This document shows, piece after piece, positions 15,712-17,249 of a DNA stretch of 64,000 bases (the stretch's first letter is position 1; each line of letters opens with the position of its first letter). The position numbers were made by a program, and so were the translations under genes. Under the pieces are notes generated by a model. The model saw only the letters and a program-made list of their open reading frames with translations. It had not been told where the DNA came from and searched no databases. Origin of the DNA: Promethearchaeota archaeon. Its GTDB lineage: Archaea > Asgardarchaeota > Lokiarchaeia > Sigyniarchaeales > SOKP01. The stretch covers positions 32,001 to 96,000 of the forward strand of contig JBHLNS010000002.1 in NCBI GenBank assembly GCA_048941285.1, in the 5' to 3' direction.

Positions 15712-15916
15712 GATTCTTTAGAAGGGAGTGTTTTTGTTTATTTTAGATTTATAAAATAAGTTTATGACTTACAAGAAAATTCGAATATAAAAATCATTAC
15801 CTAACTAATGGATTTCTGTTCTTATCAACCAAAAATTTTTTAAAGTTAATATAATAACTTATTTTGGACTCAAAAAAGATTATAATTATACAAAATTATC
15901 AAAAGGAAAATGACAT

Positions 15917-17249
15917 ATGAGTAAAACTATTGCCGTTATAGGCCTTTCGTGGGGAGTTTAGTTTTGCATGCCGCATACTAACCCTATACGAAGGCAAAGG
16001 CAAATTTGTTGACTTTTTAGCACAAAAGGCAGACATTGTTGTTCGATACAATGGAGGGAATAACGCGGGCCATACCATAAATGCTAATGGTGTCAAATAC
16101 AAGTTTAAGTTAATGCCATCTGGAGCTCCTTTAGAAAAAGAGGGTGTAATAGCCAATGGTTGTGTGGTAGATCCAAAAATCTTGCTAGAAGAAATTGAAA
16201 ACCTAAGGAAATTGAATAAAAAAGTCAATTTGAAACTGAGTTCTACAGCTCATGTAATTTTTCCCTTTCATCGTATCTTAGATGGATTAGAAGAAAAAAC
16301 AAAAGGAAATTATGCTGCTGGGACCACAAAAAGAGGAATTGGCCCTGCTTATTCGGATAAAGCAGCTCGGTGGGGTTTAAGAATCTTTGATTTAATAAAT
16401 CCTGAACTCTTGCAATCAAAATTAGAAAAACTGTTTAAAATTAAGAAAGACCTCATATCGTTATATGATCCCAATGTAGATATTAATTTAGAAGCTATCT
16501 ATGAAGAATACAAAACCTATGGGGAACAATTAAAACCTTTTGTAATTGATACAACATATTATTTGAATAAAGCTGTTGATTCTGGAAAAAAAGTTCTTTT
16601 TGAAGCAGCTCAAGGTAGTCTTTTAAGCATTGATTTTGGAATGTACCCTTACGGGACTTCTTCTAATGCAAACGCTTTAGGTATTTCGTCAGGTACTGGA
16701 ATTCCCCCTAAAAAAATTATGAAGGTAATTGGAATTGTAAAAGCATATACTTCTCGTGTTGGTGAGGGTAAATTCCCCACAGAGTTATTTAACGAAACAG
16801 CGGATAAAATCAGAGAACAAGGACATGAATATGGAACTGTAACAGGAAGACCAAGAAGGGTTGGATGGCTAGATCTTTTTAATATTCAATATGGAATTAT
16901 GATTAATGGTGTTGATAAAGTCATTATAACTCTTTTGGATGCGTTACAAGGGATTAACCCAATCAAAATTTGTATTGGCTATGATTTAAAAGGCATACAA
17001 CTTGAAAGTTGGCCAATACAATCAGAACTAATTGAAAATTGTGAACCGATTTATAAAACTTTTGAAGGTTGGGAGGAAAAGACTAGAGAAGAATGGTTGG
17101 ATATAGCGAAAAAAGGATATGATGCCCTCCCAGAAACTATGAAAACGTATATTCAAGCAATTAAAAATATCCTTAAAACTGATGTTGCAATGGTTTCGAT
17201 TGGACCAGATAGAAAGGAAACAATAGTGTTAGAAGATGTGAATTTTTAA
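15917..17249 (+). CDS. purA: Adenylosuccinate synthetase, interrupted by a 31-nt intron-like insert (join 15917-15956, 15988-17249; 433 aa)
   Basis: The joined sequence reads MSKTIAVIGLSWGDEGKGKFVDFL...RYNGGNNAGHT...GTTKRGIGPAY...EYGTVTGRPRRVGWLD. The ORF track only shows the part from 16113. Confidence 0.95.
15957..15987 (+). other. Putative bulge-helix-bulge (BHB/BHL-type) intron in purA mRNA
   Basis: Insert TTTAGTTTTGCATGCCGCATACTAACCCTAT splits the G|AC (Asp) codon. Central helix GGGG(15951-54)/CCCT(15982-85); bulges AG^T and AT^A; intron stem TTAGT/ACTAA; exon stem CTTTCG/CGAAGG. Confidence 0.8.

Follow-up and report, generated by a model that had tools for sequence, protein, structure and literature searches.

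The closest described counterpart of the element considered here is the intron of the archaeal cbf5 pre-mRNA, reportedly the work of Watanabe et al. in 2002 and Yoshinari et al. in 2006. That intron occurs in the Crenarchaeota (Desulfurococcales and Sulfolobales), where it lies after letter 1 and before letter 2 of the codon that specifies the catalytic Asp, and an old gain with repeated losses is its proposed history (PMC2738675; sources named by identifier are cited throughout from partial texts). The HVO_1309 mRNA of Haloferax volcanii carries a bulge-helix-bulge (BHB) intron in its 5' untranslated region, which is cleaved in vitro (PMC7714728, PMC10485636). A paper of 2020 gave cbf5 as the only additional BHB intron reported beside its own untranslated-region case (PMC7714728), and a review of 2023 put the archaeal genes spliced in this way at two or more, with others probably to be found (PMC10485636). 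Asgard archaea possess an (alpha-beta)2 form of the splicing endonuclease EndA with an L1 loop, linked to a broad substrate range (PMC5829648), and the motifs of their non-canonical tRNA introns have been sorted into the classes hBHBh', hBH and HBh' (10.64898/2026.10.13.758758). A full-text literature search, in which subscription journals are thinly covered, returned no report of BHB introns in Asgard protein-coding genes or in purA. Here we describe a 31-nt insert in the purA gene, encoding adenylosuccinate synthetase, of a Promethearchaeota archaeon (Sigyniarchaeales), located in a stretch of 64,000 nucleotides (contig JBHLNS010000002.1, positions 32,001 to 96,000 of the forward strand) that we call the window; on the evidence below it is very probably a BHB (tRNA-type) intron of the purA pre-mRNA, spliced by EndA and the ligase RtcB. 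G000 denotes the genome holding the window, and numbers with the prefixes C, L and G denote contigs of G000, loci read and genomes, respectively.

As written, purA is interrupted. From the ATG at 15917 the upstream frame reads MSKTIAVIGLSWGV and then meets TAG, a stop after 14 codons, and a second frame, open from 15942, carries ...EGKGKFVDFLAQK... from 15990 (EGKGKFVD) and runs to the stop codon at 17247-49; the earliest ATG, GTG or TTG in the latter frame is codon 57, at 16113. Excision of the 31 nt from 15957 to 15987 joins G15956 to the AC at 15988-89, giving GAC, restoring WGDEGKGK and producing a spliced purA of 13 + 1 + 419 = 433 codons. The junction is unique, because an excision displaced by a single base in either direction would read GYE or GVE rather than GDE, replacing the Asp by Y or V. 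All on the plus strand, the predicted parts of the gene are exon 1 (15917..15956), which starts with the ATG and runs through 13 codons (MSKTIAVIGLSWG) to the G that opens the Asp codon; the intron (15957..15987), with an in-frame TAG at 15959-61; and exon 2 (15988..17249), in which AC completes the Asp codon and 419 codons (EGKGKFVD...) lead to the stop. Exon 2 matches the Pfam profile PF00709 (Adenylsucc_synt) with an E value of 5.9e-154 over profile positions 10-416 of 416, the nine positions without a match corresponding to exon 1, and the P-loop GDEGKGK is complete only once 15957-15987 has been removed, WG, D and EGKGK being contiguous in intact relatives. A first-pass annotation of this DNA had described the two frames, the stop, the ATG at 16113, the 31-nt removal and the 433-aa PurA, and all of these sequence statements proved correct on recheck.

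The RNA around the insert can be folded (all coordinates on the plus strand) into an outer, exonic helix of CUUUCG (15944..15949) with CGAAGG (15989..15994), leaving U15950 unpaired; a central helix in which GGGG of the exon (15951..15954, in the Trp and Gly codons) pairs with CCCU of the intron (15982..15985); and an intron hairpin (15958..15981) with the inner stem UUAGU (15958-62)/ACUAA (15977-81) and a top of UGC (15965-67) and GCA (15973-75) closing the loop AUGCC. Between these helices lie the 5' bulge A-G^U (15955..15957) and the 3' bulge A-U^A (15986..15988, a relaxed site), the caret marking the predicted cuts after G15956 and U15987. The intron thereby begins with base 3 of the 5' bulge, continues through the inner stem with its hairpin and the central helix's 3' strand, and ends with bases 1 and 2 of the 3' bulge. 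Each strand has the order of a true BHB topology (flanking helix, four central bases, 3-nt bulge, flanking helix), and both junctions required by the protein sit exactly after the second base of each bulge, so that the coincidence of protein-required and predicted cut sites claimed in the first-pass annotation is borne out; the pairings it had named (exon stem, central helix, bulges, intron stem and hairpin) are likewise all present. The GGGG/CCCU pairs survive in the unconstrained minimum-free-energy fold, which has a z-score of -2.1 to -2.5, and so do the inner stem and the 5' bulge. Among 28.3 million fixed placements of length 30, 31, 32 or 34 in G000 (29.7% G+C), the fraction with four of four central pairs is 2.6e-2, that with at least five inner pairs as well is 2.7e-4, and that with an outer stem of at least six pairs in addition is 4.2e-6. 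By the rule given for Asgard tRNA introns (a central helix of four pairs, flanked on one side or both by a helix of at least two pairs; 10.64898/2026.10.13.758758), the purA motif is of class HBh' with an offset h.

Neither an Rfam family at gathering score nor a tRNA was found in searches of the window, and a self-splicing group I or group II intron was rejected on the same lack of an Rfam match at gathering score in the window. The size of such ribozymes is far above 31 nt.

The insert recurs among relatives. We scanned 400 genomes from 85 genera of the phylum with a pattern that fixes TGGGG.G and A-Y-GARGG and would miss any insert located elsewhere in purA or flanked differently. It gave 32 matches, 30 of them purA inserts and all of these in family f1 (30 of 135 family genomes, against 0 of the 265 other genomes of the phylum), and a reversed-pattern control gave one match. 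The two other matches, in G298 and G302 from other families, are ordinary in-frame coding sequence and not inserts. Carriers number 18 of 54 genomes in the window's genus, g1 (the window's genome included), 2 of 6 in g15, 1 of 10 in g21 and 9 of 42 in g22; the g21 locus (L097) was read from the pattern match only, outside the locus readings made for g15 and g22. Within g1 a purA match was obtained in 49 of the 54 genomes and the site was read in all 49. The 18 carriers have the insert at an identical position (17 genes are full-length, and L057 is cut by a contig end), with a length of 31 nt in 15 cases, 32 nt in two and 30 nt in one. Every insert of any of these lengths creates a stop in the upstream frame (read by eye), and its precise removal gives WGDEGKGK in every insert-bearing case, while the remaining loci of the genus and 11 loci of other genera and families run uninterrupted through tggggNgaY^GAR. 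In all 30 matched insert-bearing genes GGA encodes the Gly that precedes the split Asp, against about 7 of 31 intact genes of the genus (read by eye), and the 5' bulge opens with the A of this codon (15953-15955).

The first-pass annotation had proposed looking in relatives for inserts at the same site with compensatory changes, and the 30 family genomes supply the inserts and the genus sequences among them covarying helices. Covariation was counted for 18 pairs on the 18 sequences of the genus (alignment A2), with 500 shuffles: paired cells amount to 87.0%, against 81.7% in the shuffles (none of the 500 reaching the observed value) and 32-49% with slid partners, and double-sided changes occur in 8 of the 18 pairs (equalled in 1 of 500 shuffles), statistics that overstate the support because the related genomes are not independent. 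The intron helix has changed on both sides in seven of its eight pairs, for example from U-A to A-U in L012 and from U-A to C-G in L016 and L018. Within the exon stem, the changes of Leu CUU to CUC and Glu GAA to GAG (columns 14 and 61), both synonymous, go together in four sequences, and the pair is kept. All four central pairs form in 16 of the 18 genus sequences and in all 11 from the other genera g15 and g22. Helix h, formed by exon sequence, of six pairs and offset by the extra U15950, is found in the window's clade and absent elsewhere; helix h', formed by intron sequence, has five pairs in the window and at least two contiguous pairs in 27 of 29 sequences, beginning one base in in L039 and L057. 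The introns of L039, L057, g15 and g21 are quite different in sequence, yet they still fold a hairpin adjoining a CCCU, CCCC or CUUU strand that is paired with GGGG.

A different account of the locus leaves the insert in the mRNA and has the ribosome recode it, by a +1 frameshift at GUU-UAG, by stop readthrough or by bypass, so that PurA would carry extra residues or a skipped stretch. The hairpin after the stop codon appears to resemble known recoding signals. In the window the downstream frame is open as early as 15942, and one +1 shift ahead of the TAG at 15959-61 would therefore join the two frames. Such a product, however, would be without the Asp of GDEGKGK, and its P-loop would hold some 11 foreign residues. 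The event required would differ with the length of the insert (readthrough for 30 nt, a +1 shift for 31 nt and a -1 shift for 32 nt), none of these events yields an Asp codon, and with three insert lengths no single recoding event giving a conserved protein in all carriers was found. Changes in the insert track RNA pairing and not codons, and bypass would find no Gly codon near the 3' end of the insert as a landing site. Recoding is accordingly judged very improbable.

That the gene is simply broken, as a pseudogene disrupted by a small insertion, or that the insert is an artefact of assembly, is suggested by the stop that interrupts purA as written and by the nature of the source: G000 is a metagenome-assembled genome of 3.55 Mb in 101 contigs, rated 94% complete with 3.4% contamination. 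The purA query also found no match in 5 of the 54 genus genomes (G003, G006, G051, G065 and G068), so that some of these genomes may tolerate its loss. Among these five, G006 is a single contig rated 90% complete and G003 is rated 97% complete. An artefact is at odds with the presence of the insert in 30 separate assemblies from four genera, including L069, a record deposited as a closed chromosome. A pseudogene is at odds with the state of both exons. The complete 419-codon exon 2 is kept in 17 of 17 full-length insert-bearing genes, and exon 1, with its ATG, comprises 13 codons in 18 of 18 genus carriers, with the peptide pattern M[ST][KND][TNC][IL]A[VI][IVM]GLSWG and many synonymous differences in the codons for Gly, Leu, Ser, Ile and Ala (GGC/GGG/GGT, CTT/TTA/CTC and TCG/AGT/TCC); in g15 and g22 exon 1 has 14-16 codons and likewise ends in IGLSWG. 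The pairwise ratio of nonsynonymous to synonymous substitution (dN/dS, Nei-Gojobori method), a rough measure here because dS is near saturation, has a median of 0.087 between insert-bearing genes (129 of 136 pairs usable, median dS 1.41), essentially the same as the median of 0.081 between intact genes (454 of 465 pairs usable). Judging from these substitutions, both purA exons are under purifying selection. A broken gene would not be expected to retain both exons so well throughout four genera; the selection data contradict the pseudogene reading, and we regard the chance that either a pseudogene or an artefact explains the locus as close to nil. The first-pass annotation had named a second intact purA, with relaxed selection on this copy, as the finding that would count against splicing; G000 holds one purA, and each insert-bearing genome of the genus has one purA match, with the exception of the cut-off G004. 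Two intact purA copies occur in G049.

An intron removed from the transcript thus remains our preferred reading, and the genome encodes enzymes that could carry out the removal. G000 has two EndA-family open reading frames (ORFs), of 205 and 203 aa (C70:1942-2556, minus strand, and C68:23972-24580, plus strand), each with the Pfam domains PF01974 and PF02778, and one RtcB gene (C69:32455-33762). The ORF on C70 keeps a His at a position where that on C68 has none; their assignment as alpha and beta subunits is presumptive, being our own reading against the catalytic triad. The two subunit genes would fit an (alpha-beta)2 enzyme. G000 is rich in BHB introns: of the 31 tRNA genes that ARAGORN reported, all outside the window, 19 are predicted to have an intron, and many tRNA genes were probably missed owing to multiple or non-canonical introns. 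The cbf5 gene of G000 is uninterrupted.

From the DNA we infer the following course of cutting and joining, and the enzymes responsible. The purA transcript would fold so that GGGG of the exon pairs with CCCU of the intron, this helix being flanked by an intron stem of 5 bp and, at its other end, by the 6-bp exon stem of this species. A heteromeric EndA of the alpha-beta type would cut behind G15956 and U15987, the second bases of the two 3-nt bulges, and RtcB would ligate the exons and probably circularise the 31-nt intron. The join would create the GAC codon for the catalytic Asp in the P-loop GDEGKGK and hence a 433-residue adenylosuccinate synthetase, which would yield the peptide TIAVIGLSWGDEGK free of insert-encoded residues.

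Besides the non-independence of the related genomes, several observations weigh against such splicing. The purA motif is a relaxed and not a strict BHB, owing to the extra U15950, as the first-pass annotation had stated, and to a 3' bulge that is partly closed, a loosening that the minimum-free-energy fold adds to its account. This fold has two further central pairs (U15950-A15986 and G15949-U15987) and leaves a 3' bulge of only 2 nt; the 5' bulge AG^U is present in every fold, whereas the 3' bulge AU^A is possible but has two bases paired in the minimum-free-energy fold, and because A15986 and U15987 are the bases so paired the 3' side is relaxed or ambiguous. The central helix has only three of four pairs in L042 and L055, and the outer helix is absent from L016, L018, L042 and all 11 g15 and g22 sequences, the sequences in which Ser is AGU. 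All of the genomes compared are metagenome-assembled. One RNA run aligned at 80% likeness gave four contig pieces and no joints, and the sole near-identical contig (151 nt, 15780-15930) ends before the insert and is neutral on splicing. Taken with these points, the recurrence of the insert, selection on both exons, covariation, the single purA and the enzyme genes still favor the spliced intron that the first-pass annotation had proposed.

The history of the insert was examined on a maximum-likelihood tree (quick search) of exon 2 with 59 rows, which is a tree of the purA gene only. At least seven gains or losses are needed on this tree, and the carriers in the genus all fall within one subclade of 44 rows. 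Since three further genera have the insert as well, an old gain followed by repeated precise losses would be the simpler reading, as in the history proposed for cbf5 (PMC2738675).

Other genes of G000 appear to carry similar inserts, as a genome scan for further frameshifted genes with BHB motifs, which the first-pass annotation had suggested, brought out. A first scan used the strict hBHBh' motif and an ORF-joining test: under loose ORF rules it gave 1,730 joins, nearly all of them intergenic or inside other ORFs, and under strict rules 23 candidates including purA. None of the other 22 was convincing, most belonging to one continuous ORF or being contained in a longer ORF of a different frame or strand. 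Over the scans as a whole, reading of the protein led to the rejection of C31:43588-43630 (HdrB-like, with the real ORF running through it), C87:16951-16996 (small GTPase), C32:16089-16138 (N-terminus of ribosomal protein L3), C28:1248-1296 (two separate genes), C50:32476-32503 (C-terminus of an ORF resembling enoyl-CoA hydratase), C1:190187-190231 (a Kae1/Bud32 boundary, possibly with a TTG start) and C69:62539-62600 (weak helices). Later scans, which were not exhaustive and were judged by reading the flanking peptides, drew on those long ORFs of G000 (150 codons or more) whose first 35 codons include no start codon, 60 of 2,622, and on an HBh' motif, with four of four central pairs and at least three or four inner pairs, joining an upstream ATG exon. 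In these purA ranked first, and three further candidates emerged, in aEF-2, rpoA1 and a CoA-transferase gene, with inserts of 30-34 nt across which the Pfam profile coordinates continue.

The aEF-2 insert (30 nt; C1:142733-142762, L127:733-762, plus strand) is in frame with stops and lies between ...QMTDSD and DEEQERGITI; exon 1 covers positions 2-35 of the Pfam profile GTP_EFTU and exon 2 positions 49-187. It folds with a central helix UCAG/CUGA and an inner stem of 9 bp, and is found in 17 of 135 family genomes and in no controls, 19 genus loci having been read without it. A second EF-2 paralogue, of 41% identity, is located at C66:76070. In rpoA1, the single-copy gene for RNA polymerase subunit A', a 30-nt insert with stops (C1:98368-98397, L158:568-597, plus strand) separates ...CMGHFGH from IELARPV, and positions 2-73 and 74-312 of the profile Rpb1_1 are contiguous across it; of 30 genus loci, 27 are intact at this site, the 30-nt insert occurs only in the window's genome, and L169 and L189 have inserts of 85 nt and 65 nt. 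The insert in the family III CoA-transferase gene (site A; 34 nt; C33:43254-43287, L159:1454-1487, minus strand) splits a Gln codon near the gene start, ...LDCS-Q-FISGPW, and relatives (L201-L217) show site A and also a second site, site B, with about 31 nt inside AEVIKVE^PPPFGE (read by eye). The CoA-transferase of L217 contains seven stops and may be a true pseudogene.

These further inserts bear on the possibility that the purA insert is removed from the RNA by some other endonuclease and ligase, or by a pathway recognising the hairpin, rather than by EndA and RtcB. A hairpin top of the form GC-ANNUC-GC, which could bind a protein, is common to purA (15965-15975 in the window), the L159 intron of site A and the site-B introns of L201, L205, L206 and L208, and in many species the 3' site of the purA intron is not a clean 3-nt bulge. 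[quoted passage not shown] Removal by an enzyme other than EndA seems to us quite improbable, and splicing by EndA and RtcB remains the preferred reading. The hairpin may mark one intron family spreading between genes, or a protein-binding site. A scan of G000 for the hairpin motif gave 571 occurrences, 108 with some BHB and ORF join, of which only purA and site A of the CoA-transferase are credible. Two 31-nt candidates, at C79:4336-4366 (minus strand) and C22:28480-28510 (plus strand), have the string AGCGAATCGTTTT in common and a BHB-like setting, with flanking peptides that are unrecognisable.

It is possible, though we would put it at somewhat less than an even chance, that in one Asgard family enzyme-spliced mini-introns of 30-34 nt are a dynamic, genome-wide feature of protein genes, with at least five sites in four genes that are gained or lost between species of one genus, and that the purA and CoA-transferase introns are one self-copying family. 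Among the long ORFs of G000, 367 of 2,622 have no ATG in the first 40 codons, most with GTG or TTG within a few codons; either alternative starts are common, or more genes have hidden upstream exons. An antisense frame of 116 codons (minus strand, 15899-16249) runs across the intron and the start of purA; this frame is unsupported and probably spurious, though a gene caller might report it given the broken purA.

If the purA insert is indeed spliced, enzyme-spliced introns reach the Asgard archaea and core genes for purine synthesis, translation and transcription. Gene callers would then report such genes as truncated, frameshifted or missing, and metabolic reconstructions and completeness estimates of these metagenome-assembled genomes would be biased. 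Close species that differ in whether this site holds the intron would constitute a natural experiment on intron gain and loss, and the purA intron would be a concrete substrate for asking whether Asgard EndA acts on mRNA. Any bearing on the origin of spliceosomal mRNA introns would be indirect, because the mechanism is that of tRNA splicing.

In eukaryotes, the splicing of HAC1/XBP1 offers a parallel, in which a protein endonuclease and RtcB-type ligation excise a very short intron and shift the frame of the mRNA. It differs in that the endonuclease is IRE1 and the sites are two stem-loops and not a BHB, and no IRE1 is implied for purA. Such unconventional splicing is mentioned in PMC13149111. 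Nearer at hand, the HVO_1309 intron resembles that of purA in that EndA acts on an mRNA, but it lies in the untranslated leader, where the reading frame is not interrupted, and in a euryarchaeon with a homodimeric enzyme (PMC7714728, PMC10485636). The non-canonical tRNA introns of Asgard archaea come from the same lineage, presumably involve the same enzyme and include many recent gains; the host RNA of the purA intron differs in being a protein-coding transcript, and the word mRNA is absent from the available text of the preprint (10.64898/2026.10.13.758758). The strongest likeness is to cbf5, whose intron the first-pass annotation had placed at a catalytic Asp, rightly so (PMC2738675): the purA insert too splits the codon of a catalytic Asp between letters 1 and 2, and the cbf5 intron has in common with it an often relaxed cleavage motif, hosts with a hetero-oligomeric EndA, and a patchy distribution with lineage-specific losses. 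By contrast, purA encodes an enzyme of purine synthesis and cbf5 an RNA-modifying enzyme; the host here is an Asgard archaeon (Promethearchaeota) and not a member of the Thermoproteota; the purA intron lies 13 codons from the start; and at least three further genes of the same genome have similar inserts. This comparison supports placing the purA insert in the cbf5-type class of archaeal mRNA introns, to which it would add a new setting, the Asgard archaea, and siblings in core genes.

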